Shown here in pieces: positions 33,351-50,171 of a DNA stretch of 64,000 nt. A model generated the notes under the pieces. That model worked only from the letters and a program-made list of their open reading frames with translations. It was not told the DNA's origin and ran no database searches. Origin of the DNA: Candidatus Bathyarchaeota archaeon. Its GTDB lineage: Archaea; Thermoproteota; Bathyarchaeia; 40CM-2-53-6; DTDX01. A program made the translations under genes and the position numbers. The DNA lies in the NCBI GenBank assembly GCA_018396775.1, contig JAGTRF010000004.1, positions 16,214-80,213 of the forward strand, given 5' to 3'. The stretch's first letter is position 1. Each line of letters opens with the position of its first letter.

Positions 33351-33358
33351 TTTTTATA
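33351..33358 (+). promoter_or_regulatory. TATA-like box (TTTTTATA) in the divergent rpl2 / PGI-PMI intergenic region
   Basis: Lies 39-46 nt upstream of ATG 33397; the same AT-rich 90-nt region must also carry the ribosomal-operon promoter on the other strand. Confidence 0.3.
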
Positions 33359-33396
33359 TGTTTCGTTTTCTTAACTTATTTTAAAGGTTTTGAAAA

Positions 33397-34503: not shown

Positions 34504-35959
34504 TTACACCTAATGGAACTAATCTAGCTACTTTAAAGGCCACTCCAACCTTATGGCTTACTTCAGCCACTCTATCTACATCTTTATAAGCGTCAGGGGC
34601 CTCCTCGCTTACAACAGCTATGCTAGCTGCTCTAATTAATATTCCTTGATTTTCAAGTTTTTGCTTAACTTCGCTTCCCCAAAACCTTTTTTTAGCTGCA
34701 GCTCTGCTTAAAACTCTTCCAGCACCATGCGCAGTTGAGCCAAAACTAACTTCCATAGCTTTTTTAGAGCCAACTAAAACCCAAGAGCTTGTTCCCATGC
34801 TTCCTGGAATAATAACTGGTTGACCTATGCTTCTATATTTTGCTGGCACATCTTTATGCTCCGGAGGAAAAGCTCTTGTTGCACCTTTTCTATGAACACA
34901 AACAATTCTTCTTTTTCCATTAACAACATGCTCTTCCTTTTTAGCTATGTTATGAGCAACATCATATACTAAATGCATTCCTAAAGACTCAGCTGATCTA
35001 TTGAAAATTTTTTCAAAAGCTTGTCTAGTCCAATGCGTTATCATTTGCCTATTAGCCCAAGCAAAATTACATGCAGCTGCCATAGCAGGTAAATAATCTT
35101 CAGCTTCAGGGCTTTTTATTGGAGCGCAAGCCAATTCTCTATCTGGAAGCTTTATATCATATTTTTTAACAGCTCTCTCCATAACCTTTAAGTAATCATC
35201 GCATATTTGATGACCGAAACCTCTACTACCTGTGTGAACTAAAACCATGATTTGCCCTTCTTCCTCAATTCCAAAACTTTTAGCTATATTTTTGTTAAAA
35301 ATTTTATCCACAACCTCCACTTCTAAAAAATGGTTTCCACTTCCTAAGCTTCCAAGCTGAGGGTAACCTCTACTCTTAGCTATAGAGCTGACTTTACTTG
35401 GATTAGCGCTGCTCATGCATCCATTTTCCTCGCAGTTTTCAGCATCTTCAGGCCAACCGTAACCCGCATCTATAGCCCAATTAACGCCTTCAGAAGCTAC
35501 TTTATCAAGCTCTGAAAGAGCAACCCTTAATTTTCCCCTGCTTCCTAATCCTGAAGGAATATAATTAAATAATACATCAAGCAGCTTTGGTAAAACAGGT
35601 TTAACATCATTAATTCTTAAGTTAGTTCTTATAAGTCGAACTCCACAATTTATATCGTAACCCACTCCACCAGGGCTTACAACGCCCTCTTCATAATCTG
35701 TAGCTGCCACTCCACCTATTGGAAAACCATACCCTTCATGGCCATCAGGTAAAGTAATAGACCATTTATAAATTCCCGGTAAATGAGCTACATTAGCGCA
35801 CTGCTCAATCGTTAAATCCCCCTTCATTTTTTCAAGCAAAACTTCATCGCTATAAATTCTTCCTGGAACCCGCATTCCAGACTTATAAGAAGTTGGAATC
35901 TCCCAAATACATTCATCCAGCTTTATTAACGGAACATGCTCAGAGCTTCTTCCAGACAT
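34493..35959 (-). CDS. rtcB: RNA-splicing ligase RtcB (tRNA exon ligase)
   Basis: ...NVAHLPGI...PDGHEGYGFPIGGV...DINCGVRL...HTGSRGFGHQ...GSTAHGAGR; 488 aa, no intein. Confidence 0.9.
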   Translation of the reverse strand: MSGRSSEHVPLIKLDECIWEIPTSYKSGMRVPGRIYSDEVLLEKMKGDLTIEQCANVAHLPGIYKWSITLPDGHEGYGFPIGGVAATDYEEGVVSPGGVGYDINCGVRLIRTNLRINDVKPVLPKLLDVLFNYIPSGLGSRGKLRVALSELDKVASEGVNWAIDAGYGWPEDAENCEENGCMSSANPSKVSSIAKSRGYPQLGSLGSGNHFLEVEVVDKIFNKNIAKSFGIEEEGQIMVLVHTGSRGFGHQICDDYLKVMERAVKKYDIKLPDRELACAPIKSPEAEDYLPAMAAACNFAWANRQMITHWTRQAFEKIFNRSAESLGMHLVYDVAHNIAKKEEHVVNGKRRIVCVHRKGATRAFPPEHKDVPAKYRSIGQPVIIPGSMGTSSWVLVGSKKAMEVSFGSTAHGAGRVLSRAAAKKRFWGSEVKQKLENQGILIRAASIAVVSEEAPDAYKDVDRVAEVSHKVGVAFKVARLVPLGVTKG

Positions 35960-36023
35960 TTTCTCATCTCCATTTAGAAATAACTTGAAACTTAGCTTTA
36001 AAGCTTTAAACGTGCTAAAAAAG

Positions 36024-36458
36024 TTATAAATCCAAAATAAACTTTGCTATAAATTTACCCGACTCTTGAGAAATACTCATCTTATGGTAAGTTACTGCTT
36101 TAACCTCTGTTTTAGATAAATGCTTATTTTTATCAAATGCTTCCCCAAAAACTTCAGCCTCTAAATAAAATAAATTATTTACCTGCGTTATTTTTTTAAC
36201 GTTAAAAATCGAGTAAAGCTTTAATTCTATTTCAAACTTTAAGAGTAAAGCTTCAAGCCAATTATGAAGAAGCACTATTTCATCTTCTCCTTCAACTTTA
36301 ATTTCATCCCTCAATTGAGGTTCAATTAATTTTGTATCCGTCATAACTTCGAACATAGCTAATCCAGCATTACTAAAAGCTTCTTCTAAGCTTTCACCAT
36401 AAGCAGCTATATAAGCGTCGCCCACATGCTCTAAAAACTCAAATTTTTTATCAACCAT
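36024..36458 (-). CDS. archease (RtcB activator)
   Basis: 144 aa; FEFLEHVGDAYIAAYGESLEEAFSNAGLAMFEVMTD; sits immediately downstream of rtcB. Confidence 0.8.
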   Translation of the reverse strand: MVDKKFEFLEHVGDAYIAAYGESLEEAFSNAGLAMFEVMTDTKLIEPQLRDEIKVEGEDEIVLLHNWLEALLLKFEIELKLYSIFNVKKITQVNNLFYLEAEVFGEAFDKNKHLSKTEVKAVTYHKMSISQESGKFIAKFILDL

Positions 36459-36540
36459 AATATTCCCTCTTTTTTCATTAAAGAAAGTAAAAGTTTTTTA
36501 TTAACCTTTAATTTTAACTATTTTACTTAAAAGTTTAAAA

Positions 36541-36664
36541 GCCGGGATGGCCGAGTGGACTAACCTTAAGAAGGGTTTAAAGGCGCAGGCCTTGAGTTAA
36601 GTAAGACAGGACAGCCTGTGGCCCTTTCAGGGCCTCGTGGGTTCAAATCCCACTCCCGGCGCCA
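36541..36664 (+). tRNA. tRNA-Ser(UGA)-like type-II tRNA, 124 nt with CCA encoded and two candidate introns: 18 nt in the D-loop and 16 nt at canonical position 37/38
   Basis: GCCGGGA-TG-GCC-GAGTGGACTAA[CCTTAAGAAGGGTTTAAA]GGC-G-CAGGC-CTTGAG[TTAAGTAAGACAGGAC]A-GCCTG-TGGCCCTTTCAGGGCC-TCGTGGGTTCAAATCCCAC-TCCCGGC-G-CCA. Confidence 0.7.
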
Positions 36665-37056
36665 AAAACTTATCTAAAGAAAAGTTTAATTTAAAATTGA
36701 AATTTAAAGGATTAATGTACAAGAAATACGGTAAAACTTAAACAGTTTCCTATGAAGAACTATTTGAGGTAAGCTTTTCTATCCAAAAGGTTTAGGTATA
36801 GTGAAATATGAGGAGAAATAGTAATTTTGTTAAATTTTCCTCCTGTTGAGTTTTTTATTGAGGCAATTGTAATTTTTATATCGTTTATAATCAATTATGC
36901 ATTTATTCTTCTATGAATAATTAATTGAATTTTAAAAGGAAGAATGCTGAAGAAAACCTTTAGATATTACTTATAACTGGAGAAATTTGCGATATATGCT
37001 TAATGACGTTAAAATAACATATGTTTTTATAAGGAAAAGAAAAAATTAATTTAAAT

Positions 37057-37410
37057 TTATTTATGAATGAGATTTGAGTCATTTTGGTTGATAAGCTCAC
37101 TATTCAGCCATTTAATATAATTATTATACCCTCCTATAATTGGGAAAGCTATTATTTCTGGAATTTCATAAGAATGGATTAATTTTACTTTGTTAATTAA
37201 TTTATTTAATAATGATGTTTTAGATTTAATTATTAACAAGGATTCTTGAGACTTTTCAATTTTTCCTTTCCACCAATAAAAACTTTTAATTCGAGGTAAA
37301 ATGTTAACGCATGCAACCAATCTTTTAGAAAGTAATATCTTAGCTATTTTTTCAGCTTCCTTAATGCTTTGGCATGTTATAAAAACAATTATGTACATTT
37401 CTTTTTTCAA
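37057..37410 (-). CDS. cutA: divalent-cation tolerance protein CutA1
   Basis: MYIIVFITCQSIKEAEKIAKILLSKRLVACVNILP...SYEIPEIIAFPI. Confidence 0.75.
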   Translation of the reverse strand: MKKEMYIIVFITCQSIKEAEKIAKILLSKRLVACVNILPRIKSFYWWKGKIEKSQESLLIIKSKTSLLNKLINKVKLIHSYEIPEIIAFPIIGGYNNYIKWLNSELINQNDSNLIHK

Positions 37411-37412
37411 CT

Positions 37413-39845
37413 TTAAAGTGTTACTTCAACTTTAATATCTTCTTCATCAATTAAAGATTTAACTTCAATAAAGTTTATGATGCATGTTTGAGCAATCAAA
37501 TCTAAATATTTACTTAAAGCTTCTTTCTCTTTAACATAAATTATTGCTTTGCTTAATGGAGTTTTTAATGAAACTTTTTTTTCAGCTTTCAGCCGCCTGA
37601 TAGTTGCTATAACGTTTACTATTAAATCACCAAGTTTTTCATCTTCATTTGAAATTAAATTTTTGTTTTGTGAAGGCCACTTAGTTAAGTGAATGCTTTG
37701 TTCACTTTTCCCATTAACTATTGGTTTAATTATTTGATAAATGGTCTCAGTTATATGAGGGCATATAGGAGCTAACAGTTGGATTATTCTATATAAAGTG
37801 TAGACTAAAGTGTATTGAGCAGCTTCCTTGCTTAAACTATCTTTCGGCAGCTTGAGTCGAAGCTTTACAGCCTCTAAATAATGATCGCAAAAAATATGCC
37901 ATGTAAAGTTTCTTATAGCTTCTATAGCTATGTTAAATTGAAAGTTTTCTAGCGCATTGGTTACCTCTTCTGTAAGCTTTTCAAGTTTGCTAAGAAGCCA
38001 TTTATCTAAAACCTCCAGCTTATATTGTTTATCCTCCATCTTAAAATTGTTTAAGTTCATTAGAATAAACCTTGAAGCATTCCAAAGTTTTGTTAAAAAT
38101 CTTTTCCCATACTCAACGTCACTCCACCTAAATGGCACATCGTATCCTGTTGAACCTCCGCCAGCAGCCCATTGTCTAAGCGCATCTGCTCCATATTTTT
38201 CAATAACAGCGTTAGCTTCCACATAATTTCCATAAGATTTATGCATCATTCTTCCATCTGATCCTCTTACCATTCCATTAATTAAAACAGTTTTATATGG
38301 AGCTATATTAAATAAAGCTAAATGTTTAACCATAAGATAGTAATCCCAAGTTCTAATTATGTCTAAGCCGTTTGGTTGAAGATCAGCTGGAAAAAGCTTC
38401 TTAAATGTTTTAGGGTTGTTTGGCCAACCAGCATGCACAGCGCATGTAATTGATGAGTCCATCCATGTATCCATCACATCGATTTCTCCAGTAAATTCAT
38501 TTGATCCACATTTAGGGCAAGAAGAAATTTTAGGTTTTTCAAATCTAGGATCTATTGGAAGCCACTCTTTTTCCGCAACAATAATTTCCTTGCATTTTAC
38601 GCAATACCAAACTGGAATTGGTGTAGCGAACATTCTTTGCCTTGAGATAACCCAATCCCAATCTAAAGATAAAGCCCAATCAATCATTCTTTTTTTAGCG
38701 AAAGATGGAATCCATTCAACTTTTTCAGTCCATTTAATAACTTCATCAGTCATTTCTCTAGTTTTCATAAACCATTGAGGTTTAGATAATATTTCTACAG
38801 GTGTATGGCATCTCCAGCATGTGCCAACGCTTTGCTTTAAAAACTCTTTTTTAACTATTAAGTTTTCTTTCTCTAAATCTTCAATAATCGCTTTTTTGCA
38901 TTCATGAATAAATAATCCAGCGTATTTTCCAGCTTTTTCATTCATTTTACCATCCTCAGTTATAACTATAATTTGCGGTAAATTATGTCTTTTCTGCCAT
39001 TTCACATCAGTTTTATCTCCATAGGTACAAATCATTACAACACCTGTTCCAAATTTTGGGTCAACTTCATCATCTGATATAATTTTAACTTTTTTATTAA
39101 ATAATGGGATTTCAACAAATTTTCCAATTATATTTAAGTATCTCTCATCATTTGGATTAACTGCTACAGCAACACATGCTGAAATAAGTTCAGGCCTAGT
39201 TGTAGCTATTAAAAGATCCTTTTCAGCTTCATCAATTAATTTAAATTTAATATAGTTTAAAATTGTTTCTCTCTCGATATATTCTACTTCAGCTTCAGCT
39301 ATAGCTGTTTCGCATCTAGGACACCAGTTTACTGGGTGCTCTCCTCTATAAAGCTTACCTTTCTTATAAAGAAGAATAAATGAGAGTTGTGTAAGCTTAT
39401 AATATTCCGGATCCATAGTTTTATATTCTAAAAACCAATCTATAGAATATCCTATTTTCTTCATTGTAGTCTTCATTTCATTAATATATTCTAGCGTTAA
39501 TTGAATGCAGAGCTTTCTAAACTCGTTTATTGAAAGATCTTTTTTTCTAACTTTAAATTTTGTTTCAGCTCTAACTTCTGTTGGAAGTCCATGGCAATCC
39601 CAGCCTTGAGGAAAATGAACGTTAAAACCTTTCATTCGTTTATATCTAGCTATAAAATCGAAGTAACACCAGTTTAAAGCGTTTCCCATATGAAATTCTC
39701 CGCTGGGATATGGGGGTGGAGTATCAATGGCGTATGTTGGTTTAGTTTCATCTTTAAAGTTAAATCGGTAGATTCCCCATTCTTCCCAAAGCTTTTGCCA
39801 TTTAGATTCATTATCTTTAGGGTTATAGGTTTTAGGCAGCTCCAA
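37413..39845 (-). CDS. valS: valyl-tRNA synthetase (class I; compact 810 aa form)
   Basis: YNPKDNESKWQKLWEE N-terminus; PPPYPSGEFHMGN (HIGH-type); editing domain; KMSKS-like MHKSYGN. Confidence 0.75.
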   Translation of the reverse strand: MELPKTYNPKDNESKWQKLWEEWGIYRFNFKDETKPTYAIDTPPPYPSGEFHMGNALNWCYFDFIARYKRMKGFNVHFPQGWDCHGLPTEVRAETKFKVRKKDLSINEFRKLCIQLTLEYINEMKTTMKKIGYSIDWFLEYKTMDPEYYKLTQLSFILLYKKGKLYRGEHPVNWCPRCETAIAEAEVEYIERETILNYIKFKLIDEAEKDLLIATTRPELISACVAVAVNPNDERYLNIIGKFVEIPLFNKKVKIISDDEVDPKFGTGVVMICTYGDKTDVKWQKRHNLPQIIVITEDGKMNEKAGKYAGLFIHECKKAIIEDLEKENLIVKKEFLKQSVGTCWRCHTPVEILSKPQWFMKTREMTDEVIKWTEKVEWIPSFAKKRMIDWALSLDWDWVISRQRMFATPIPVWYCVKCKEIIVAEKEWLPIDPRFEKPKISSCPKCGSNEFTGEIDVMDTWMDSSITCAVHAGWPNNPKTFKKLFPADLQPNGLDIIRTWDYYLMVKHLALFNIAPYKTVLINGMVRGSDGRMMHKSYGNYVEANAVIEKYGADALRQWAAGGGSTGYDVPFRWSDVEYGKRFLTKLWNASRFILMNLNNFKMEDKQYKLEVLDKWLLSKLEKLTEEVTNALENFQFNIAIEAIRNFTWHIFCDHYLEAVKLRLKLPKDSLSKEAAQYTLVYTLYRIIQLLAPICPHITETIYQIIKPIVNGKSEQSIHLTKWPSQNKNLISNEDEKLGDLIVNVIATIRRLKAEKKVSLKTPLSKAIIYVKEKEALSKYLDLIAQTCIINFIEVKSLIDEEDIKVEVTL

Positions 39846-39899
39846 TTAAAGATTTCACCTAAAGCTACACTGCACAAAATCTTTTTAAAATTTATTGAT

Positions 39900-40937
39900 T
39901 TAAAGTTTAAATCTCTTTATAAAGCTGGAGTTTTTAGATGCAATAAACCGCAAGCTTTTAGCCATAAAGCTTACTATAAAAAAGCCAATTGTTAAAATTC
40001 CTAAACCGAATGTAAACCAATTAATTAATGTTGAAATTATTGAATTTAAAAACTGTTTTTCAACAGCTAAATCGTAAATGTATCCGTAATAATTAAAAAA
40101 CCAGTGAAATAAAATTGAGGCGTGAGCGCCGTATCGAAGATAAACCAAACCAAAAATTAAGCCTGCTAATGAAGCTGAAGTTATTTTTCCCATTTCCCAA
40201 CCTGAACCGGCAAGATAATGCGCTAAACCAAAACCTAATGAAGTTAAAATTAACAGTAGCCATTCTCCAAGCTTTACGCCTTTAAACCATCCATTTGCTT
40301 CAATATTTTCTATACCAATAGTTTTTTTAGCTTTATCTGGATAAAGAAAGGCTAAAACTAAAGTTTTTAAAATCAAGGTTTTAGGAGCTTTAATTGTTTT
40401 AATTAAACAGGAAATTATTGAGGCTAACCCTATAAGGGATATTCTAAACCCTAACTCTTCAATTATAGGCGAGTAAGCTAAACTAAATAAAGCTTCATAA
40501 GGGTTTTGAAATTGAATAGAGCCTGTTGGAATGCCATGTGTTTCTTGAAGGCTTTGAATAAAAATTATTGCGATTAAAAGAGAGCTTGAAGCTAAAGGCA
40601 TAAGCGTTAACCAATTTTTAGAAAGTAATTTTGGATTCAAAACTGCTTTATGAAATGGTGTGTCAAGCTTCCATGAAGCAATTAAACATAATGAATATAA
40701 TAAGAGTAATATTGCGAATAAAAAACCTAAATTAACTCTTAATGGAGACCAAAAATCTATAGCGAAAAAAATTATTAAAACTTTAACTTTGCTAGCAATT
40801 AAAGCTGCGTTTTCTTTATTTAAAAACATTAAGATGAAACCTAAGGGAATAGAAAAAAAATATGTAGCTACTATAATTGTTATAGATGCGCTTAAACTTA
40901 ATTCTGCAACCTTAAAAAGCGTTTTAACAGCATTCAA
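39900..40937 (-). CDS. CPBP-family intramembrane glutamic endopeptidase (CAAX protease/Abi-like)
   Basis: PIIEELGFRISLIGL (EExxxR motif) and FGLAHYL (second His motif) within a polytopic membrane protein. Confidence 0.65.
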   Translation of the reverse strand: MNAVKTLFKVAELSLSASITIIVATYFFSIPLGFILMFLNKENAALIASKVKVLIIFFAIDFWSPLRVNLGFLFAILLLLYSLCLIASWKLDTPFHKAVLNPKLLSKNWLTLMPLASSSLLIAIIFIQSLQETHGIPTGSIQFQNPYEALFSLAYSPIIEELGFRISLIGLASIISCLIKTIKAPKTLILKTLVLAFLYPDKAKKTIGIENIEANGWFKGVKLGEWLLLILTSLGFGLAHYLAGSGWEMGKITSASLAGLIFGLVYLRYGAHASILFHWFFNYYGYIYDLAVEKQFLNSIISTLINWFTFGLGILTIGFFIVSFMAKSLRFIASKNSSFIKRFKL

Positions 40938-40952
40938 ATCTTCTTTCTTCTC

Positions 40953-42161
40953 TCAGCAAACTTCATAGCGTTCTTTAACTAAGCTTTCGCAAAACTGGTC
41001 GATTTTACTTAATTCCTCCTGAATTATTTCTTCCACCTGTTTTGAAATATTTGAAAATTTAATGTTAGATTCTAAAATTAATTGAGCTGAAGCTATTTTA
41101 GGTTGATTTATTGGTTGACCAATTTCACTTAAAAGCCATACGTAAACCTCTTTTATTCCAGGCGTTTCTTGATAAATTTTTTCAGCCATTTTATAGCTTA
41201 AAATATTATAGATTTTACCTATATGGCTTACAGGGTTTTTTCCAGCAGCTGCTTCTGAAGAAGTGGGCCTATTTAATGGTATTATGCCGTTAACTCTATT
41301 CCCTCTTCCAACTTGACCACAATCTCCATCATCAGCTGAAGTTCCAAGAACTGTTAAATACATTCCCCCCATTCCTCTACCTTTTCTATCAAGCGTGTTA
41401 AGGCTTATAGAAGTCTTCATATTTGTTTTTGAATTTACGAATTCTTTAACCTCCTCTAAGATTTCGCTTTTTCTTTTAAAATAATCATCTTCGCTTTCTA
41501 TAAATTTATCCACAAAAGCCATGGCTATAGTTAATTGAAGATTATTGTTCTTCCTTAAGCCCATGATTTTAACATCTTCTCCAGATTCAGGATGCTTTTT
41601 CTTAAAGTCTTTAGAGTTAAGAAATCTTTCAGTTTCAAAAACAATTTTTTCAGTTTCAGTCATTGGAAAGAAGCCTACAGCTGCTGAAGTATCATTTGCT
41701 CCTAAAATTTTTCCCCCTCTTTTAAAAATATCTGTAAGCGCTTCTGAACCTCTTTTAAGTTCAACTTGATATTTCACATGCTCTTCAGGATTAACAAATC
41801 TTAAGTTTCTTTTAAACCATTCTCTAGCTGTTTTAACAACAATTTCATTTACTGGAATTTCTTCTTCATCAACTTTAAATGTAGCTCTATCGCCGAAAAC
41901 CATAAGCATAGGGTTTAAAACTTTTCCGCCTCCAAATCTTCTTTCAACCTCTCCAGCTACTAGCAATCCTTTATCAATATTATGATGCATTATAGCGCCG
42001 AATTTTTTTAGATACTCTTTTGAAAGAGCAATTGAAACTTCGTTAGCTATAGCATCGCATATATAATCTGGATGACCAACTCCTTTTCTTTCGCAAATTT
42101 CTATTGGCTGGTTTTCTAATGGAATTTGTTTTAATTCAGCTACAACTATATTATTACTCAT
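40953..42161 (-). CDS. mat: S-adenosylmethionine synthetase, archaeal type
   Basis: ICERKGVGHPDYICDAIANEVS plus 400 aa of archaeal-MAT-like sequence. Confidence 0.8.
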   Translation of the reverse strand: MSNNIVVAELKQIPLENQPIEICERKGVGHPDYICDAIANEVSIALSKEYLKKFGAIMHHNIDKGLLVAGEVERRFGGGKVLNPMLMVFGDRATFKVDEEEIPVNEIVVKTAREWFKRNLRFVNPEEHVKYQVELKRGSEALTDIFKRGGKILGANDTSAAVGFFPMTETEKIVFETERFLNSKDFKKKHPESGEDVKIMGLRKNNNLQLTIAMAFVDKFIESEDDYFKRKSEILEEVKEFVNSKTNMKTSISLNTLDRKGRGMGGMYLTVLGTSADDGDCGQVGRGNRVNGIIPLNRPTSSEAAAGKNPVSHIGKIYNILSYKMAEKIYQETPGIKEVYVWLLSEIGQPINQPKIASAQLILESNIKFSNISKQVEEIIQEELSKIDQFCESLVKERYEVC

Positions 42162-42217
42162 TTTGCTTCACGTGAATTTCAATCAAATAAATTCTTATAT
42201 TAATATTATTATGTTTA

Positions 42218-42239
42218 TTTTATTCTTATAGGAATAAAA
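42218..42239. promoter_or_regulatory. perfect 8-bp inverted repeat with 6-nt spacer (TTTTATTC-ttatag-GAATAAAA) in the divergent mat / HTH-CBS intergenic region; candidate operator
   Basis: Centred ~43 nt upstream of the HTH-CBS start and ~68 nt upstream of the mat start. Confidence 0.3.
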
Positions 42240-42270
42240 TTTTTAAGTAACCAACTGCTAATTTAACTTT

Positions 42271-42831
42271 ATGCTTCCATCATTAAAGGAGATAGAGCTT
42301 AAAAGAAAAAGCTTAGGGTTAAATCAAAAGCAATTAGCTAAACTTGCTGGAGTAAGCCAATCTTTTATAGCAAAAATAGAATCTGGAAAAATTAATCCTT
42401 CATATGAAAAAACAAAAACGATTTTTGACGTTCTTGAAAGCGTAGAAAGGCGAAGAGAAATAAAAATTGAGCAAATAATGCATAAAGAGGTTGTAGGAGT
42501 TAATAAAAAAGATTCTGTAGTTAAAGTAGCTCGTTTAATGAGTGAAACAGGGTATTCTCAGCTTCCAGTTTTTAATGAAGAAAAAAAGGTTGTTGGAAGC
42601 GTAACAGAAAAAACAATTCTCGATCAAATTGTTAGAGCTAAAGATCCAAAAGAGCTTTCAAACCTTTCTGTAGAAGAAATAATGGAGGGGGCTTTTCCAA
42701 CTATAGATGAAAAATCGCCGGTAGAAACTGCTTCATTTCTTTTGCAGTATTCGCCAGCAGTACTTGTAGTAAGAAAAGGCGAAGTTGCAGGTATAGTAAC
42801 TAAAGCAGACCTGCTTAAAACAATTCATTAA
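42271..42831 (+). CDS. HTH (XRE/Cro-like) plus tandem CBS-domain transcriptional regulator
   Basis: N-terminal LGLNQKQLAKLAGVSQSFIAKIESGK HTH; then two CBS repeats (IMHKEVVGVNKKDSVVKVARLM..., VEEIMEGAFPTIDEKSPVETASFLL...). Confidence 0.7.
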   Translation: MLPSLKEIELKRKSLGLNQKQLAKLAGVSQSFIAKIESGKINPSYEKTKTIFDVLESVERRREIKIEQIMHKEVVGVNKKDSVVKVARLMSETGYSQLPVFNEEKKVVGSVTEKTILDQIVRAKDPKELSNLSVEEIMEGAFPTIDEKSPVETASFLLQYSPAVLVVRKGEVAGIVTKADLLKTIH

Positions 42832-42835
42832 ATAA

Positions 42836-44047
42836 TCATTTTCTTTTTGATGCTGCTACAATATGAATTATATCTCTATCTCTTAATGTATAATTTACTG
42901 GAAGCCTTAACCCTGTTCTAGCATCAATACCATAAATTAATGTTTGAGCAAGCTCTGTATGAATTTGAGCAGCTAAATCCTTAATTGTTGAATCTTTTGA
43001 AACTAAAAAAGCGTCAGGTAAAACATTTCCTTTTTTATCTGATAAATGCTCAGCATCCTCAACTGGATAAACAACATTCATTCCTAAAAGCTTAAAAACG
43101 CTTAAGTTTAAAGCAAATTGAACCCCTGTTCCAATAAATTTAGATAAAACCCTTTGCTGAACATAATTTAAAGCCCATTTCTGCTCTTTTGTAAGCTTGC
43201 TTTCATCCACCACTTTAAAAGCTTCCTCTCCAGGAATATATTTTATAAAACCTTTTTGCTCAGCTCTACGCAAGGCTAATTCAGCATCGCTAGAGCATGG
43301 AACAATAATAATTTCTTTAAATTCCTCACTTAACTTTTTAAAGTTTTCTTCAGCTGGCCCTATATCCATTTTATTCGCAATTATTATCGTAGGTTTAGAA
43401 AGCGATCTAAGCTCTTTAGCGAAATTTAAATAATCTTTTTCAAACCAATTCTCCATCCTTTTATTTTTTAAACCTGAAGCTTCTAAAGCCTTAGCTACAT
43501 GAGTTAACTTAATTTTTAATCCAGCTAAAACCTCAGCTATAGCTTCAGCTAAATCCCCACCTTTATCAACTTGCTTAATTATCTTTTTCGAGCTTCTCTC
43601 TATAGTTTTCGCAAACCATCGTGTTAACTCCTCCTCAACATCATAAACATCCAATATAGGGTTTCCAAATCCAGGTTTAGTTAGCCTACCCTCGCTATCA
43701 ACGCTTCCAGAAGCATCAACCACATGAAGCAAAACATCAGCTTGAGCTGCAATGCTTAAAAAAGCTGTTCCTAAACCTTTTCCAAGCCATGCTCCTTTAA
43801 TTAAACCAGGAAGATCAATTAATTCTACTGGGATAAAACGCCAACCATCAATGCAAAAAGAGTTTTGCGGATTATCTTTAACGCCAAGCTCTTTGCAAAC
43901 ACAAATAGTTTGAATGTAAGCTCTCCCTATATTAGGCTCTTTCGTTGTAAAAGGATAAGTGGAAACTTCAGCTGAAAGCAAGGTAGCAGCATTAAAAAAA
44001 GTAGTTTTCCCAGCGTTAGTTTTTCCAATCAAACCTATTTTAATCAT
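42836..44047 (-). CDS. Obg/DRG/YchF-type GTPase (ORF track starts at 44074; internal ATG at 44047 fits the P-loop spacing)
   Basis: IGLIGKTNAGKTTFFNA G1 motif; YPFTT G2; IDLPGL G3; NKMD G4. Confidence 0.65.
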   Translation of the reverse strand: MIKIGLIGKTNAGKTTFFNAATLLSAEVSTYPFTTKEPNIGRAYIQTICVCKELGVKDNPQNSFCIDGWRFIPVELIDLPGLIKGAWLGKGLGTAFLSIAAQADVLLHVVDASGSVDSEGRLTKPGFGNPILDVYDVEEELTRWFAKTIERSSKKIIKQVDKGGDLAEAIAEVLAGLKIKLTHVAKALEASGLKNKRMENWFEKDYLNFAKELRSLSKPTIIIANKMDIGPAEENFKKLSEEFKEIIIVPCSSDAELALRRAEQKGFIKYIPGEEAFKVVDESKLTKEQKWALNYVQQRVLSKFIGTGVQFALNLSVFKLLGMNVVYPVEDAEHLSDKKGNVLPDAFLVSKDSTIKDLAAQIHTELAQTLIYGIDARTGLRLPVNYTLRDRDIIHIVAASKRK

Positions 44048-44182
44048 AAGCCAAACCATTATAAACCTACACATTACTTAGATTTAAAAATTTAATTTTA
44101 AAAGCTTAAAAATAACTTTAAAAAATAAAATCAATAAAAAGAATGTAAATTTAAGAAAAATATTATAAAAAAGGGAATATAA

Positions 44183-44656
44183 ATGAATAAAATATATAAA
44201 AACATTATATGCGTATTTATTATAATTATTATTGCAATTATTTCGGTATTTGGCATACGCATTTTGCTTAAATCGACACCTGAAACCATATCTAATAACT
44301 CAACCTCGATATGCCCTATATGCACTTATTTAACGTCATATATGTTTTATCAAAATATAACTGTTAACGAGTTGAAAGCTATGCTAGATGAAGAAGCAAA
44401 CATAACTATCGTTGATGTAAGAATGCCTGAAGAATATGCAAATGGTCATATACCAAACGCCATAAATATTCCAATGCATAAAATTTCATCAAGAGTAAAT
44501 GAGATAAAAGGAAAAAATGTTGTTGTTTATTGCAATTCTGGTGCTAAAAGCAAAGCATCCGCTAGAATACTAGTTGTAAATGGTGTTCAAAATGTTTGGA
44601 ATTTAGCCGGCGGTTTAAAAGCTTGGATTGCTGCAGGTTATCCTATTGAAAAATAA
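44183..44656 (+). CDS. rhodanese-domain sulfurtransferase with N-terminal membrane anchor
   Basis: N-terminal TM (IICVFIIIIIAIISVFGI); rhodanese fold IVDVRMPEEYANGHIPNAINIP...VVVYCNSGAKS with active-site Cys. Confidence 0.7.
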   Translation: MNKIYKNIICVFIIIIIAIISVFGIRILLKSTPETISNNSTSICPICTYLTSYMFYQNITVNELKAMLDEEANITIVDVRMPEEYANGHIPNAINIPMHKISSRVNEIKGKNVVVYCNSGAKSKASARILVVNGVQNVWNLAGGLKAWIAAGYPIEK

Positions 44657-44747
44657 ACTTTTTCCTTTACTTTTAAGCTATTAAATATTACTCGACTATT
44701 TTAGACTGAGACTGGTTTAGGGGATCTAAGCAAAGCGTTAACTCATT

Positions 44748-44771
44748 ATTATAGCAAGCTTTTGCTATAAT
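44748..44771. other. 10-bp perfect hairpin (ATTATAGCAA-gctt-TTGCTATAAT) between the rhodanese gene and tRNA-Thr; possible terminator or processing signal
   Basis: Perfect inverted repeat with a 4-nt loop, ~45 nt from the tRNA 3' end and ~90 nt from the rhodanese stop. Confidence 0.25.
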
Positions 44772-44813
44772 CTGCTTATAATGCAAATCTCCCTTAAAAA
44801 TTGCATATACTGA

Positions 44814-44887
44814 AGCCCCGGGCGGGCTTCGAACCCGCGACCTGCGGCTTACGAGGCCGCCGCTCTACCAGGCTAAGCCACCGGGGC
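44814..44887 (-). tRNA. tRNA-Thr(CGU), 74 nt, no intron, CCA not encoded
   Basis: Reverse complement: GCCCCGG-TG-GCTT-AGCCTGGTAGAGC-GGCGG-CCTCGTAA-GCCGC-AGGTC-GCGGG-TTCGAAG-CCCGC-CCGGGGC-T. Very GC-rich stems. Confidence 0.85.
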
Positions 44888-44937
44888 TTAATTTTAAATT
44901 AAAGTTTAATTAAAGCGTTTAAAGAGGATGCTTAAAT

Positions 44938-45936
44938 TTGTTTACAGCTGAAAATTTAGGGGAGAGAGAAATTATAAAGCTTTTTCTTAAATTTTTTATT
45001 TCATCCCCTTCAGAGTTAAAGTTTTTTAATGAAGATGTAGCTTTAGTTAAATTGCCTAGGGGTAAAGCAGTTGTTTTAAAGTGCGATATGCTTGTTTCAT
45101 CTACAGATGTCCCGCCTGGAATGAGTTTTAAGCAAGTTGGTAGAAAAGCTGTTGTTTCAACAGTTAGTGATTTCGCTGCTAAAGGCGTTAAACCTTTAGC
45201 GCTTTTAGTTTCTGTAGGATTGCCTAAACATATGCTTAAAAATGAGTTGAAGCAATTAGCTTTAGGTTTAGCTTCTGGAGCTAAAGAATATAATGTTAAA
45301 ATCATTGGCGGCGATACGAATGAATCCAAAGAATTAATAATTGATTGTATTGGTTATGGATTATGTAATGAAAAAAATTTATTTTTTAGATGGGGCGCTA
45401 AACCGGGGGATATTTTAGCTTCAACTGGAGAGTTTGGAGCAGCTTCAGCTGGGCTTAAAATAGCTTTAAACAGTTTTAAAGCTTCAAAAAGTTTGAGGCG
45501 AAAATTGCTTAAATCAGTTTATATGCCTAAAGCTCATTTAAAAGAGGGGTTAGCATTATCTAAAGTTAAAGCAGCAACAGCTTCTATTGATTCAAGCGAT
45601 GGATTAGCTTGGTCTCTTTTCGAGCTTTCTAAAATGAGTAAGGTAGGCTTTATTATAAAAAATTTACCTATCTCAAAAGAGGTTTTAATGCTTGCTAAAT
45701 TAAATAAGTTGAATCCTATTAAGCTAGCACTTTACGGTGGAGAAGAATTCAATTTAATTTTAACTATAAGGCGGGATAAATGGAGTAAAGCTTTAAAGGC
45801 TGTAAAAGCGGTTGGAGGAGAGCTTTATTTTTTAGGTGAAGTTGTTAAAGAAAAAAAGCTTGTTTTAAGCTTAAAGGATAGGGGAGAAGAGAAAATTAAG
45901 CCTTTAGGTTGGGAGCATTTAAAAAAGAAGTGGTAA
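44938..45936 (+). CDS. thiL: thiamine-monophosphate kinase-like protein (PurM/AIR-synthase-related superfamily)
   Basis: GEREIIKLF...FNEDVALVKLP...KCDMLVSSTDV...VSDFAAKGVKPLALLVSVGLP...GGDTNES follows the ThiL/PurM pattern. Confidence 0.55.
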   Translation: MFTAENLGEREIIKLFLKFFISSPSELKFFNEDVALVKLPRGKAVVLKCDMLVSSTDVPPGMSFKQVGRKAVVSTVSDFAAKGVKPLALLVSVGLPKHMLKNELKQLALGLASGAKEYNVKIIGGDTNESKELIIDCIGYGLCNEKNLFFRWGAKPGDILASTGEFGAASAGLKIALNSFKASKSLRRKLLKSVYMPKAHLKEGLALSKVKAATASIDSSDGLAWSLFELSKMSKVGFIIKNLPISKEVLMLAKLNKLNPIKLALYGGEEFNLILTIRRDKWSKALKAVKAVGGELYFLGEVVKEKKLVLSLKDRGEEKIKPLGWEHLKKKW

Positions 45937-45992
45937 ATAAACTTTTTTAATAAGGAATTTTAGCTTATATGGTTAACGAACGGTGAAATTTA

Positions 45993-46892
45993 ATGACTCA
46001 AAAAAAGATTTTAGCTGCAAGCTTGCTGCTGAACTTTATTTTAGCCATGTTTATAGGTATTGTTTTTATTCAATTTTACTCTTTGAAATCCCAAATTGAA
46101 GCTTTAAAAGAGGAGAATATGCTTTTAAATAAGGAATTTAACGCTTTAAAACAGAAAAATGAAATTCTTCAAAGTCAATTAGATTATTATAAAACGCAAG
46201 CTGATTATTATTCTACTATTTATAATAAATCTGTTTTAATTGTTGAAGGAATTTTAGGCGAATCGATAGTAAATATAGTTGCTGTTAAAGAGGTTCCATT
46301 AAGCTTTTTTGAAGTTTCTTATGAAGGTGTAGTAATGAAAGTTAAAGTTGAGCTTAAGCAAGGGGAAGGACGGATTTTAATAAACACTCAACCTAGAGTT
46401 GGTATAGATCTTCAAACAAGCGCTAGAACAGCTAAATTGATTGCTGAAAACTTTACTAAAAAATCTTTAGATAAAACTGATGTGATTTTGACAGTTATAG
46501 CTGAGTCTGATGTTAATGTTGTTGATGGGCCAAGCGCTGGAGCAGCTATAACAATAGCAATTATTTCAGCTATTCTTAACAAAACTTTAAAAAACGATAT
46601 TTATATAACTGGAACAATAAATCCTGATGGAGCCATAGGGTGGGTTGGTGGAATACCTGAAAAAGCTGTTGCAGCCGCTAAACAAAACGCTATTAAATTT
46701 TTGGTTCCAAAAGGGCAAAAAATTATTTCTATATTAAAACCTGAAAAAAAAGAACCCATTCCTGGAGTAACAATAGTTACTTATAAAGTTGAAGAAATCG
46801 ATTTAAATGAGTATTTAAAGGAGTTTGGATTTAAAACTGAAGTAATCGAAGTTGAATCTATATTTGAAGCTTATAGAGAATTTACTTTATGA
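45993..46892 (+). CDS. membrane-anchored Lon-protease-like (S16 peptidase) domain protein without an ATPase domain
   Basis: N-terminal TM (LAASLLLNFILAMFIGIVFI), coiled coil, then S16 signature VVDGPSAGAAITIAIISAIL...YITGTINPDGAIGWVGGIPEKAVAAAK (Ser in PSAG, downstream Lys). Confidence 0.6.
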   Translation: MTQKKILAASLLLNFILAMFIGIVFIQFYSLKSQIEALKEENMLLNKEFNALKQKNEILQSQLDYYKTQADYYSTIYNKSVLIVEGILGESIVNIVAVKEVPLSFFEVSYEGVVMKVKVELKQGEGRILINTQPRVGIDLQTSARTAKLIAENFTKKSLDKTDVILTVIAESDVNVVDGPSAGAAITIAIISAILNKTLKNDIYITGTINPDGAIGWVGGIPEKAVAAAKQNAIKFLVPKGQKIISILKPEKKEPIPGVTIVTYKVEEIDLNEYLKEFGFKTEVIEVESIFEAYREFTL

Positions 46893-46917
46893 AAATTATT
46901 TTTCAAGGTTATTAAAA

Positions 46918-47607
46918 ATGTTAAAAATAAATAACTGTTTAAAAGGAAAAGTTAAATTAAAAAATCCAGTTTTAATTGAAGCTTTACCTGGAATAGGGCT
47001 TGTAGGTTATTTAGCTGGAGCTTATTTAATTCAAGAATTTAACGCTGAAAAAATTTATGAAATTATAACTTCAAACCTTCCAAACTTAACTTTTATAGAA
47101 AAGGGTGAAATTAAATATTCTTTTAATGCGCTTTACAAAATTCATAAAGCCAATTTAAATAGAGATTTAATGATTTTATTTGGTAATACTCAAGCTTCTC
47201 CTCCTTTAGATCAATATAAACTTTACAGCGAAATTTTAGATTTAACTAAACAAATGGGATGTAAAGAAGTTATATCAATTGGAGGCTTAAAAAGAGAGAA
47301 GCAACCTTTACAATTAAACATTTATTGCACAGCAACTAATAAAGAGATTTTAATGAAAGCATCAAATTTAGGTGCTAAAATTCTTTATGGAAAAGTTTTC
47401 GGTGCTGCCGGAGTTTTACCTGGGTTAGCAAAGCTTAAAGGTTTAAATGGTTTATGCATATTAGTGGATAGTTTAGGAGTTTATCCAGATGCTTCAGCTG
47501 CTCAAGCTGCATTAAAGTTTTTAAGCAGTTATTTAAATTTTCCAATATCAATTAAAAAATTCGAAAAAAGTTTAGAATGGGCTCAAAGCTTTTTAAGCAG
47601 CTTTTAA
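46918..47607 (+). CDS. PAC2-family protein (proteasome assembly chaperone 2 homologue; ORF track starts at TTG 46852)
   Basis: NPVLIEALPGIGLVGYLAGAYLIQEFNAEKIYEI resembles the N-terminus of archaeal PAC2 homologues. Confidence 0.55.
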   Translation: MLKINNCLKGKVKLKNPVLIEALPGIGLVGYLAGAYLIQEFNAEKIYEIITSNLPNLTFIEKGEIKYSFNALYKIHKANLNRDLMILFGNTQASPPLDQYKLYSEILDLTKQMGCKEVISIGGLKREKQPLQLNIYCTATNKEILMKASNLGAKILYGKVFGAAGVLPGLAKLKGLNGLCILVDSLGVYPDASAAQAALKFLSSYLNFPISIKKFEKSLEWAQSFLSSF

Positions 47608-47612
47608 AGCTT

Positions 47613-48062
47613 TTAAGGTTTGCCCCCCGCTTCTTTAATGAATTCTTCATAAACTTTCTTTGCTCTTTCAGCAGCTGGCCCAACCCCTTCAATAACACCA
47701 TTTGCTGTAACTCTTATTTTATCCATAACAATTATTACTCCGGCATCCTCCATAACTTTAACCATTTTTGGAAAAACTCTTTCTAATCTTTCAGCTAAAC
47801 CCTTTAAATCAAAAGGCTTCTCTATTTCTCTAATTTCCGAGATTACCCTCCCATAAATTATTATTCTAAATATGTTTTTACCATCTTGATCTTTAGCTTC
47901 AGTTAAGCAAACACTCATAGTATTAACTTCAACGCCAGATAAAACTCCAGTATATGTTTTTCCTAAATTAGTAGTTACAATAACGTTTTTTTGAATCATG
48001 GCAGCTAATTCTTCCATAAACCGTCTTTCACTTAATGTAGACAATTTTTTTCCTCTCTTCAA
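47613..48062 (-). CDS. Sm-like archaeal protein with C-terminal extension (SmAP3-like)
   Basis: Sm fold VIVTTNLGKTYTGVLSGVEVNTMSVCLTEAKDQDGKN...IIIYGRVISEI plus a ~70 aa C-terminal domain. Confidence 0.55.
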   Translation of the reverse strand: MKRGKKLSTLSERRFMEELAAMIQKNVIVTTNLGKTYTGVLSGVEVNTMSVCLTEAKDQDGKNIFRIIIYGRVISEIREIEKPFDLKGLAERLERVFPKMVKVMEDAGVIIVMDKIRVTANGVIEGVGPAAERAKKVYEEFIKEAGGKP

Positions 48063-48123
48063 ACTTTTCCTTTTTATTTTAAATTTATAAATTAGTAATC
48101 TTAATCAATAAAAATATTCTGTT

Positions 48124-48339
48124 TTAAATTTGCTTACGTTTAAAAAAAGCTTCCTTACTTTTTAAAATAATTTCTTTAGCTTCTCTAGCGGTTTCAGCTT
48201 CTCCAATTTTTCTTGCTTTATAAACGTGAATTAAAGCATTGCAATATGGGCATCTTTTAGTTTTCTGTTTCTTCATGCATAAAAAAAGTTTTCCGCATTT
48301 AATGCATTGAATCACCATAAAACTCATTAACTTTAACAC
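48124..48339 (-). CDS. small zinc-ribbon protein
   Basis: CIKCGKLF...x13...CPYCN; start is ambiguous and overlaps the upstream gene by up to 40 nt. Confidence 0.4.
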   Translation of the reverse strand: MLKLMSFMVIQCIKCGKLFLCMKKQKTKRCPYCNALIHVYKARKIGEAETAREAKEIILKSKEAFFKRKQI

Positions 48340-48934
48340 CTTTAATTAACTCTAAAAACTGTTTTAACTTACCTTCTTTATTCAACTCTTTTATCCAATC
48401 AACTTCTCCAAAAACACCTCTTCTTTTCTTAAGGTTTCTTAACGCTTCATTAATTAAGCTAGAGATGCCGCGTTTACTTGCGTTCAATTCGCATATTTTA
48501 TTTAAAGAATTTTTTCTATAACATTTTAACGCTTCAAATAAAGATGCATCAAGAAGTTCTGCAACAACATTTTCTAAAACTTTTTCGCTTGAGTATCCTT
48601 TAACCTCTAACCTCTTTTTTAAAATAATTGGATGACACCTTAAAATAAAAACTTTTTTAACTTGAGTTTTAGAAGCTATATAAGGCGTGTAATATCCATC
48701 CAATATAATTAAACCTTTTGTATGCTTTAAAAAAGAGTTAAGCCAAGCTTTCAATTTTTTAAAATCCACAATATATGTATCTCTTTTTGAATCAAAATCT
48801 TTTATAAAACCTTTTTTTAATGCTATTTCCCCAATATTCACATAGGTTGCTTTTAATTTTTTAGCTAAAGCTTTAGAAAACTTTGTTTTTCCAACACTTG
48901 GCACTCCTGAAACTAAAATTAAACGCGCCTTCAT
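48299..48934 (-). CDS. P-loop nucleoside/nucleotide kinase (AK6/Fap7-like adenylate-kinase-related)
   Basis: ILVSGVPSVGKTKFSKALAKKL Walker A; 211 aa. Confidence 0.5.
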   Translation of the reverse strand: MKARLILVSGVPSVGKTKFSKALAKKLKATYVNIGEIALKKGFIKDFDSKRDTYIVDFKKLKAWLNSFLKHTKGLIILDGYYTPYIASKTQVKKVFILRCHPIILKKRLEVKGYSSEKVLENVVAELLDASLFEALKCYRKNSLNKICELNASKRGISSLINEALRNLKKRRGVFGEVDWIKELNKEGKLKQFLELIKGVKVNEFYGDSMH

Positions 48935-49031
48935 ATTGAAAATCTCTAACTAATTAAACATAAAATTCTCAATTTTAAAATAAAAAATTTACTTTAAATT
49001 TAGTTTCATAAGCGGTTAAAGCTATAAAAGC

Positions 49032-50171
49032 TTAAATCCCAAAATTCTTTTTTATAATTGATTCATATATTAAAAGAGTTTCTTTAACAGCTTTATCCCA
49101 ATTGAAAAATTTTTCTATATGTTTTCTTCCATTTCTTCCCATTTTAATTCTTTCACCTTCATTTTCTAAAAGCCAAATTAAAGCTTCACCAAGTTTTTTT
49201 GAATTTTTAGGTGGAACAAGAATTCCTGTTTCTTTATTTTTTACTATTTCAGGTATTGCGCAATGGTTAAAAGCAACTACAGGTTTACCGCAAGCTTGAG
49301 CTTCAGCTAAAGGAAGCCCAAAACCTTCCCATAAGCTTGGAAAACAAAAAACATCGCAAGCTGCATAACATAAAGGCAACTCGTTTTCAGATGCATATCC
49401 AACAAATATTAAGGCTTGTTTAACTTTTTCATTTAAAATTTTTTCTATTCTTGGAAAATCGTATCTTGAAGCACCTACAATCATTAATTTAGCTTTAGGA
49501 ATTTGTTTTAAAACATGATTAAAAGCTTCAATAAGGAATTGGAGTCCTTTATAAGGGACTAATCTTCCAACAAATAGCACTATTGAATCTTGAATTTTAA
49601 ATTTCTCTTTTATAATGGAGCCATTAATGTTTGGATTAAATTTTTGTATATCTACCCCATTATAAACTACATGAATTTTTGATGAATCAATAAAATATTT
49701 TTTCTTTAATTCATTTTTAAGAAATTTACTTACAGTTATTATTTTATCAATTTTATTTCCTCTTAAAGAAAAAAATGTTCCTAAATTATGATCTATCATT
49801 TTAATTTTTTGTTTTGGGTTTACCCAGTATTTTATAGGTGCAAAACCATGATATGTAAATACATGAGGCGATTTATAAAAGGTTTTTAAATAATTTCCAA
49901 CGAAGATATCAGGGTGATATTGAGTGTGAATTAAATCAAAATTTTTAATTTTTCCGCAAGCAATCATAAATGTGAAATGTCTAATAAATGGAATATTCTC
50001 TAAAGAAGTTTTAACTTTAATTACTGGAATATTATTTAATTTAACTTCAGAAAACCTTGTAAAAATAAATACTTCATGACCAAGCTTTATCATTCTTTTA
50101 GCTAATTCTTTTATATGATTTGTTTGTCCAGAACCTGCGAGAAGAGAGCTTCTAACTATGGCGATTTTCAT
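49032..50171 (-). CDS. glycosyltransferase family 4 (GT-B, retaining)
   Basis: KIAIV...AGSGQTNHIKELAKRMIKLGHEV N-terminus; C-terminal EGFGLPLAEAQACGKPVVA (E-x7-E motif). Confidence 0.7.
   Translation of the reverse strand: MKIAIVRSSLLAGSGQTNHIKELAKRMIKLGHEVFIFTRFSEVKLNNIPVIKVKTSLENIPFIRHFTFMIACGKIKNFDLIHTQYHPDIFVGNYLKTFYKSPHVFTYHGFAPIKYWVNPKQKIKMIDHNLGTFFSLRGNKIDKIITVSKFLKNELKKKYFIDSSKIHVVYNGVDIQKFNPNINGSIIKEKFKIQDSIVLFVGRLVPYKGLQFLIEAFNHVLKQIPKAKLMIVGASRYDFPRIEKILNEKVKQALIFVGYASENELPLCYAACDVFCFPSLWEGFGLPLAEAQACGKPVVAFNHCAIPEIVKNKETGILVPPKNSKKLGEALIWLLENEGERIKMGRNGRKHIEKFFNWDKAVKETLLIYESIIKKNFGI

Follow-up and report, generated by a model that had tools for sequence, protein, structure and literature searches.

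Does the helix-turn-helix (HTH) protein with a CBS pair that is encoded divergently from the S-adenosylmethionine (SAM) synthetase gene of a Bathyarchaeia genome control that gene, and is the inverted repeat lying between the two genes the site at which it would act? The locus is part of a 64,000-nucleotide (nt) stretch of contig JAGTRF010000004.1 (assembly GCA_018396775.1, Candidatus Bathyarchaeota archaeon), termed the window throughout, in which the gene for an archaeal-type methionine adenosyltransferase (MAT; gene, mat) and the gene for the HTH-CBS protein (hereafter the regulator) are transcribed away from each other across 109 nt, as a sequence-only reading of this DNA had described (Table 1). 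That reading proposed that the HTH-CBS protein regulates mat in response to a ligand; the proposal is supported here by a conserved gene pairing and a conserved operator core, while DNA binding, ligand and sign of regulation are predicted. From the comparison of genomes set out below, the 186-aa protein is very probably a transcription factor that acts on its own gene and on a methionine/SAM regulon in Bathyarchaeia, so that the interpretation would extend from one gene pair to a regulon and a second, paralogous regulator.

Gene neighbourhood of the regulator in related genomes

The product of the mat gene in the window was matched to Pfam AdoMet_Synthase (PF01941) with an E-value of 1.8e-173 (577 bits) and to NCBIfam NF003363 with 657 bits, above that family's cutoff of 557. 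For comparison of gene neighbourhoods, orthologous loci of the regulator were gathered from species-representative genomes with an alignment of 20 diverse homologues, giving 80 loci that are Bathyarchaeia-like (regulators 52-65% identical, locus GC content 0.31-0.61), and the flanking open reading frames were clustered and the clusters checked with Pfam and NCBIfam. In 66 of the 80 loci a methionine or SAM gene is the divergent neighbour. Of these, 26 have O-acetylhomoserine sulfhydrylase/homocysteine synthase (metY), then MetX, and 18 a homocysteine-biosynthesis enzyme of the HcyBio (PF01837)-CBS type, behind which a NIL-ferredoxin is usually encoded; 13 have archaeal MAT and nine a MetK of bacterial type. 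A cyclase-family protein is found at this position in four loci, and another gene or a contig end in the remaining ten. The sequence-only reading had made its proposal depend on conservation of the HTH-CBS/mat pair in relatives; the pair recurs in 13 loci, and 53 more have a different methionine or SAM gene in the place of mat. About five gene orders account for these neighbourhoods; from one order to the next the partner of the regulator changes but remains a gene of this pathway.

The MetK loci belong to one Bathyarchaeia clade, in which a bacterial-type three-domain MetK is encoded in the exact slot of MAT, between the genes for a CAAX protease and the HTH-CBS protein (Table 1). At locus L033 a MAT remnant of ~30 codons persists beside the regulator gene (3815-3901), and a bacterial metK with its own operator lies 2.8 kb away (5546-6837). 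Together, L033 and the MetK clade suggest a displacement of the archaeal enzyme that is still under way. Because MetK fills the MAT slot and L033 keeps a remnant of MAT, the linkage of regulator and target appears to have survived a non-orthologous gene replacement, an outcome that would be hard to explain except by a functional cause.

In the metY context the usual downstream neighbour is a protein of 115-133 aa (cluster c4; L037, 4599-5000, and 16 other loci) with an HTH-like segment, C-terminal cysteines and no Pfam match, which may be a second regulator.

A conserved core of the predicted operator at methionine and SAM genes

The palindrome with perfect 8/8 arms that the sequence-only reading had reported between the two genes, TTTTATTC-ttatag-GAATAAAA, is present with exact arms and is unique in the window at 0 mismatches. 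As a site it is conserved in part: the inner 5-6 nt of each arm are kept in relatives, and the outer TTT/AAA are not, differing even in the closest relative (89% MAT identity). The conserved core, TATTC-N6-GAATA, is designated O1 in the window, where it ends 34 nt before the ATG of the regulator gene and has its far end 75 nt from the start codon of mat. Within 150 nt upstream of the regulator start codon, the core was found exactly in 61 of the 80 loci and with at most one mismatch in 73. Its density in the same loci is ~130-fold higher in this upstream sequence (77 matches in 12 kb) than elsewhere (29 matches in 594 kb), and over 74 distinct sites hardly any change is seen at the ten arm positions, in contrast to the variable spacer and flanks. 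A conserved palindrome is found, then, upstream of the regulator's own gene and also upstream of functionally related genes, which is the pattern sought as a mark of autoregulation.

The core was also found at pathway genes that are unlinked to the regulator. A second sample, independent of the regulator, was obtained by scanning metagenome contigs with a MAT alignment, and comprised 76 MAT loci with usable upstream sequence, 31 of them with a divergent HTH-CBS gene. Of the MAT genes with no adjoining regulator gene, 28 have upstream sequence of 900 nt or more; the motif was found in 13 of these, at -70 to -80 from the MAT start (-70 to -85 over unlinked mat genes in general), as compared with -75 in the window; the sequence-only reading had named absence of the palindrome upstream of orthologous mat genes as a ground for abandoning its proposal, and the core is present there, even at mat genes that stand apart from a regulator. 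Further copies lie upstream of the unlinked bacterial-type metK (L033), of metA (L032) and of an OsmC-like/cysK operon (L051), and L011 has two motifs 31 nt apart ahead of a gene resembling cysteine synthase. In two loci regulator and target are parted by an insertion: at L013 the site has remained with mat, and at L034 it is duplicated, with one copy for metK and one for the regulator gene. Throughout these targets a gap of 12-16 nt separates the end of O1 from the AT-rich, TATA-like element of the pathway gene that follows it. On this distribution, the predicted operator accompanies the pathway genes and not the regulator gene alone.

A second HTH-CBS subfamily, likewise from Bathyarchaeia and 34-44% identical to the window protein, is divergent from MAT in 26 loci of the MAT-centred set (Table 1) and in three of three regulator-centred look-ups. 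The recognition helix of this subfamily reads GVSQAHIAKIE, as against GVSQS[FLM]IAKIE in the window family, and its loci are without TATTC-N6-GAATA and have ATAAC-N5-GTTAT just upstream of the regulator gene instead (over 360 kb, 27 exact matches, 26 of which precede MAT). Co-variation of helix and palindrome between the two subfamilies is the best available evidence, short of experiment, suggesting that HTH-CBS proteins read these palindromes.

Outside Bathyarchaeia, three distant homologues (apparently DPANN; one named Micrarchaeota) were looked up and a methionine-gene neighbour was found for none; the support for the regulon link comes from within Bathyarchaeia. The Micrarchaeota homologue (L082) has an exact operator, TATTCCTAAAAGAATA (3981-3996), 4 nt before its ATG, which suggests that the DNA specificity is older than Bathyarchaeia. 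This homologue is ~45% identical to a distant query (P0270), and a methionyl-tRNA synthetase is encoded two genes upstream of it.

Several observations count against the assignment. All of the evidence is comparative and comes mostly from metagenome-assembled genomes, and the neighbourhood contexts are mainly clade-specific, so that ~five independent gene orders, not 66, lie behind the 66 loci. In the sister clade of the window lineage (L002, L003, L005 and L006) the divergent partner of the regulator is a cyclase-family (PF04199) gene in place of mat, and no operator precedes the regulator gene; these four loci and L004 have neither the motif nor a methionine-gene neighbour, and the same holds for two of the three distant homologues. 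The window palindrome, moreover, lies by itself within chance: when 109-nt sequences are drawn at random with this base composition (18% GC), 13-17% contain a perfect inverted repeat (arms of at least 8 nt, spacer of 0-12 nt), so any significance of this one repeat taken alone (P 0.13-0.17) was rejected, and the 22-nt extended pattern, allowing up to 3 mismatches, is not commoner in the window than in shuffled sequence. The palindrome is counted as a real site because it is conserved in other genomes.

The chance level of the window palindrome and the homologues that have neither motif nor methionine-gene neighbour are also what might be expected if the palindrome were a basal promoter element, or the site of another factor, and the HTH-CBS protein merely a conserved neighbour; in many loci, besides, the A-rich spacer and right arm of O1 resemble the TFB-recognition element (BRE) and TATA box of the regulator gene. 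A promoter element of this kind does not account for a left arm, TATTC, that is invariant despite a variable spacer, or for sites upstream of unlinked mat, metK, metA and cysK, where no regulator promoter exists. In the paralogue the recognition helix differs and so does the palindrome that occupies this position, and the Micrarchaeota homologue keeps the exact site close to its start codon. This explanation is considered very improbable, and the identification of this protein, the O1 operator and a methionine/SAM regulon, taken jointly, is held with high confidence on the comparative evidence.

Three further observations concern related sequences. A third helix variant, GV[ST]QAYIAKIE (L093, L133 and L162), also adjoins MAT. 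In the metY context a perfect palindrome, ATAAC-GNC-GTTAT, lies ~33 nt to the left of O1 and adjoins the metY TATA box in 26 of 26 loci (e.g. L037, ~3925-3940); its half-sites resemble those of the second-subfamily operator, with spacing 2 bp shorter. In the window, the exact core TATTC-N6-GAATA was observed in three copies, as against 0.16 expected, which is more than one functional site accounts for. The copies other than O1 lie inside the coding sequence of HMG-CoA reductase (12430-12445) and in 600 nt of noncoding sequence that no gene follows (36904-36919), and because of these positions they are taken to be probably chance matches.

Architecture of the regulator and its candidate ligand

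The 186-aa regulator is identical to a GenBank entry from 'Candidatus Bathyarchaeota archaeon' and has an N-terminal HTH domain followed by a CBS pair (Bateman module). The HTH_3 match scores 46.5 bits (cutoff 23) and the two tandem CBS motifs 76.8 bits (cutoff 24), each above the family cutoff. In the alignment of homologues the SQS..AK.E positions of the recognition helix, GVSQSFIAKIE, are invariant, and the first and second CBS motifs contain G-Y-S-Q-L-P-V and G-I-V-T-K-A-D, respectively. The AlphaFold2 model, with a mean predicted local distance difference test score (pLDDT) of 89.2, has helices at residues 5-14, 19-26, 30-38 and 45-62, the last of which forms a long connector between the HTH domain and the CBS pair, and solved CBS pairs were matched to it by Foldseek over ~124 residues with a root-mean-square deviation of 2-3 Å. 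Sequence, profile and fold searches of the PDB gave matches to the CBS pair alone or to the HTH domain alone, and no solved structure with the full architecture, so that fold comparison yielded no ligand. The HTH-CBS family comprises 529 clusters at 50% identity (E <= 1e-30).

Residues G174-I-V-T177-K-A-D180 of the second CBS motif form the G-h-h-(T/S)-x-x-D motif with its ribose-binding Asp, the feature by which adenosyl-binding CBS pairs were recognised. G174, I175, T177 and D180 are invariant among 20 diverse family members, and the motif aligns with GVVTAID of human cystathionine beta-synthase (human CBS). At an overall identity of just 24%, Y95, S96, Q97 and D180 align with F443, D444, Q445 and D538 of the human enzyme; S96, Q97 and D180 are invariant in the family, position 95 is [YF], and human D444 is replaced by the invariant Ser. 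These four human residues are essential for SAM binding, and FDQ has been called fairly unique to SAM-regulated CBS enzymes (PMC4276868). The alignment of [YF]SQ with FDQ may be taken as a lead toward SAM, not as a test of it. Given the content of the regulon and the resemblance of the CBS-pair motifs to the SAM site of human CBS, the most likely ligand is SAM.

Two points speak for caution over SAM. CBS pairs in general also bind adenosine mono-, di- and triphosphate (AMP, ADP, ATP), methylthioadenosine (MTA) and S-adenosylhomocysteine (SAH), and the solved CBS pairs closest to this one in sequence and fold bind AMP/ADP or have no assigned ligand. The regulator could, on such grounds, sense energy charge or an adenine nucleotide (AMP, ADP or ATP; cf. 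CcpN, AcuB and MJ1225) and not SAM, in which case energy status would set the expression of the costly methionine/SAM pathway and perhaps of further genes. Its best PDB matches are MJ1225, AcuB with AMP/ADP, Sso3205 with AMP, and DarB, all nucleotide-binding or unassigned, and MAT consumes ATP. All recurrent neighbours and unlinked sites belong, however, to methionine, homocysteine, cysteine and SAM metabolism and not to energy metabolism, and the family keeps [YF]SQ in alignment with the FDQ SAM-contact motif (PMC4276868). Energy sensing is judged improbable, and SAM is retained as the preferred ligand.

Promoter geometry and proposed mechanism

The distance from the end of O1 to the regulator ATG is 24-29 nt in most loci and 34 nt in the window, and O1 overlaps the ATG in three (range -1 to 34 nt). 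This position before the ATG fits an overlap of O1 with the TATA box or the start site of a leaderless regulator mRNA. In the window an AT-rich, TATA-like stretch, AATAAAATTTTTAAG (Table 1), is the putative promoter of a leaderless or short-leader regulator mRNA. On the other side, a candidate weak second site (O2) overlaps TATA-like TTAATATA, which is positioned to serve mat. When O1 is set aside, the closest match in the MAT, metK and HcyBio contexts lies at an offset of -31/-32 from it, with 2.4-3.8 mismatches on average versus ~7 for background; the secondary site has the form xATTC-N6-TAATA and lies 31-32 bp (three helical turns) from O1, over the target TATA box.

A two-state mechanism may be proposed on this geometry. 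Most likely as a dimer or dimer of dimers, the regulator would bind TATTCY-N4-RGAATA (O1), which in every target promoter precedes the TATA box by 12-16 nt; the target in the window is mat. For the divergent regulator gene, O1 would overlap the gene's own TATA box or transcription start, leading to self-repression. The CBS pair would sense an adenosyl metabolite of the pathway, most probably SAM. At high SAM, the liganded protein anchored on O1 would also fill the weak O2 over the target TATA box, 31 bp away, and mat, metK and HcyBio would be off, as might metY-metX, though their promoters are without an O2-like site. At low SAM, O1 alone would be filled, the TATA box would be free and the pathway genes would be on, possibly aided by the O1-bound protein. 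The whole of this mechanism, with SAM-liganded repression through O1 and O2, is put forward tentatively, its chances being slightly less than even.

The repression step is where the mechanism meets its difficulties. Neither the metY context nor the unlinked mat genes have an O2-like site, and O2 as a general second operator was rejected for that reason; half of O2 coincides with the TATA box, which makes its conservation weak evidence. O1 lies wholly upstream of the BRE and TATA box of the target. Archaeal factors sited upstream of BRE/TATA exert activation more often than repression (SurR, TrmBL1/Tgr and Ptr2). The same regulator, operator and regulon might, then, work mainly by activation, the O1-bound protein recruiting TBP/TFB to the pathway genes and repressing its own gene only, and the trigger would be scarcity of the pathway product or accumulation of SAH, MTA or a homocysteine-related signal, in likeness to the LysR-type MetR or the archaeal Ptr2. 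Apart from the position of O1 upstream of the BRE and the contexts that have no O2-like site, such activation would fit the O1-to-TATA spacing, which is fixed at 12-16 nt in all targets, the unlinked ones included, while the distance from O1 to the regulator ATG varies. A divergent gene with a strong distal palindrome and an overlapped promoter of its own is also the layout of LysR-type activators. Activation leaves unexplained, on the other hand, the conserved ATTC half-site that lies just downstream of the target TATA box, 31 bp from O1, in the HcyBio and metK contexts and in some of the MAT ones; most HTH proteins of the XRE type are repressors, and for a biosynthetic regulon the simplest logic is a co-repressor through which the end product exerts control. 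Control mainly by activation is held to be unlikely though far from negligible, and repression at high SAM is kept as the working mechanism. Control of mat by a riboswitch or other RNA was rejected: no SAM riboswitch was found, one tRNA being the sole Rfam match at gathering score in window positions 30000-50000.

A broader reading is possible but less likely than not. HTH-CBS proteins could form a wide archaeal family of adenosyl-metabolite-sensing transcription factors that reaches DPANN and has at least two Bathyarchaeia paralogues with diverged helix and operator. These paralogues may also have diverged in ligand (e.g. SAM versus SAH or MTA), which would split the control of SAM synthesis from that of homocysteine/methionine synthesis, and each may act in both ways, repressing or activating according to which of two phased sites is filled. 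If true, MetJ and the S-box riboswitches would have their functional equivalent in archaea in the HTH-CBS family.

Features of the window

The coordinates of the features discussed are given in Table 1. The window is AT-rich (27-36% GC). Downstream of the regulator gene, in convergent orientation, is a gene for a YchF-like GTPase, and upstream of mat are genes for a CAAX-protease-like protein and valyl-tRNA synthetase. Among the proteins encoded in the window there are no homologues of metY, metX, HcyBio, NIL-ferredoxin, bacterial metK or cysK, and a second HTH-CBS paralogue was not found in it. At 36537-36670 (plus strand) lies a tRNA-like sequence of ~130 nt (GCCGGGATGGCCGAGTGG ... GGTTCAAATCCCACTCCCGGCGCCA). 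No gene was called here by ARAGORN, or by Rfam at gathering score; the sequence is probably a tRNA with an intron.

Table 1. Positions of the genes, domains and candidate sites at the mat/regulator locus of the window, and of the loci used for comparison (numbered within each locus)
Feature	Source	Position	Strand	Details
Archaeal-type methionine adenosyltransferase (MAT, SAM synthetase), predicted target gene	Window	40953-42161	-	402 aa; Pfam and NCBIfam
Divergent promoter region common to mat and the regulator gene	Window	42162-42270		109 nt, 18% GC
O2, candidate weak second site AATTC-TTATAT-TAATA	Window	42190-42205		Centre 31 nt from O1 centre
Full 8/8 palindrome of the sequence-only reading	Window	42218-42239		Exact; outer 3 nt per arm unconserved
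O1, conserved core of the predicted operator, TATTC-TTATAG-GAATA	Window	42221-42236		Consensus TATTCY-N4-RGAATA, 16 bp (5+6+5)
AT-rich TATA-like stretch	Window	42233-42247	+	Overlaps O1 right arm; 24-38 nt before regulator ATG; read from sequence
HTH-CBS protein, predicted transcription factor of methionine/SAM regulon	Window	42271-42831	+	186 aa; Pfam, alignment, AlphaFold2
XRE-type helix-turn-helix domain, residues 9-55	Window	42295-42435	+	Pfam HTH_3 (PF01381), E 3.9e-12
CBS pair (Bateman module), predicted adenosyl-ligand sensor	Window	42466-42822	+	Pfam CBS (PF00571), two stretches, E 1.6e-21
Bacterial-type MetK in the MAT slot	L009, L018, L020, L024, L027, L030, L032, L034, L044	~2100-3900 in each
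MAT loci with second HTH-CBS subfamily	L104-L158; L164-L166	e.g. L137 2401-2415

Comparison with known systems

To our knowledge, no transcription factor for methionine or SAM metabolism has been characterised in archaea. In the full-text literature searched, which leaves most subscription journals outside its coverage, no description was found of this regulator, of its operator or of an archaeal factor for a methionine/SAM regulon. What is supplied here is a concrete candidate regulator, a 16-bp operator, a predicted regulon (mat/metK, HcyBio with NIL-ferredoxin, metY-metX, metA and cysK) and a paralogue with another operator. Although the organisms are uncultured, short DNA probes and a soluble protein of 186 aa allow the predictions to be tested directly. 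A natural CBS-based sensor might be adapted as a SAM-responsive genetic switch, and the apparent replacement of archaeal MAT by bacterial MetK would provide a clean case of regulator-target linkage outlasting the exchange of the target enzyme.

The proposed logic resembles that of MetJ of Escherichia coli, where methionine and SAM-synthetase genes are under end-product control by SAM and metJ, divergent from its target metBL, is autoregulated through shared operators with cooperative filling of adjacent sites. The components differ: MetJ is a ribbon-helix-helix protein that reads tandem 8-bp met boxes and binds SAM with the DNA-binding domain itself, whereas the present protein has an XRE-type HTH, a separate CBS-pair sensor, a 16-bp palindrome and a TBP/TFB promoter, with no homology between the two. 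Membership of the MetJ family was rejected, as Pfam gives HTH and CBS alone and the operator is a 5+6+5 palindrome, not a set of met boxes. LysR-type MetR shares the divergence from a methionine gene, the strong distal palindrome over its own promoter with a weaker proximal site, and ligand-dependent switching, and differs in fold and sensor, the regulator described here being without the LysR substrate-binding domain by Pfam. MetR senses homocysteine and activates.

Among proteins of like architecture, CcpN of Bacillus subtilis has an N-terminal HTH followed by a CBS pair as an adenosyl/nucleotide sensor, but is bacterial, acts on gluconeogenic genes in response to ATP/ADP and has an unrelated regulon and operator; no CcpN model was among the NCBIfam matches listed for the regulator. 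The sole characterised archaeal CBS-domain transcription factor found in the literature searched is HhpR of Pyrococcus yayanosii. HhpR binds upstream of a TATA box, as is predicted here, but it lacks an HTH: its CBS domains number four, its contact with DNA is made by an arm region, and the stimulus is hydrostatic pressure (PMC11705074). Membership of the HhpR family was rejected, the score against NCBIfam NF053603 being 29.5 bits (cutoff 520) and the architecture different. HTH-plus-CBS combinations have been observed in Thermococcales and are uncharacterised, and the functions of archaeal CBS proteins were called unknown in the same 2025 paper (PMC11705074).

The proposed sensor can be set beside two SAM-binding CBS pairs, the regulatory domain of human CBS (PDB 4UUU) and MJ0100, the latter a member of the HcyBio-CBS enzyme family that neighbours the regulator in 18 loci: both have a Bateman module with the ribose-binding Asp in G-h-h-T-x-x-D, and [YF]SQ here aligns with the FDQ motif. 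These SAM-binding pairs regulate enzymes and not DNA binding, and the human enzyme is further set apart by the substitution of D444 and the low overall identity noted above. In bacteria the same task, at the same genes (metK, metY, metX and others), is carried out by SahR and by SAM riboswitches (PMC4239095); SahR is an ArsR-type repressor that responds to SAH, and riboswitches act in RNA, with no Rfam riboswitch in the present case. The kind of system, a metabolite-sensing, autoregulated transcription factor, is known from these examples; the regulator predicted here would fill a recognised gap.

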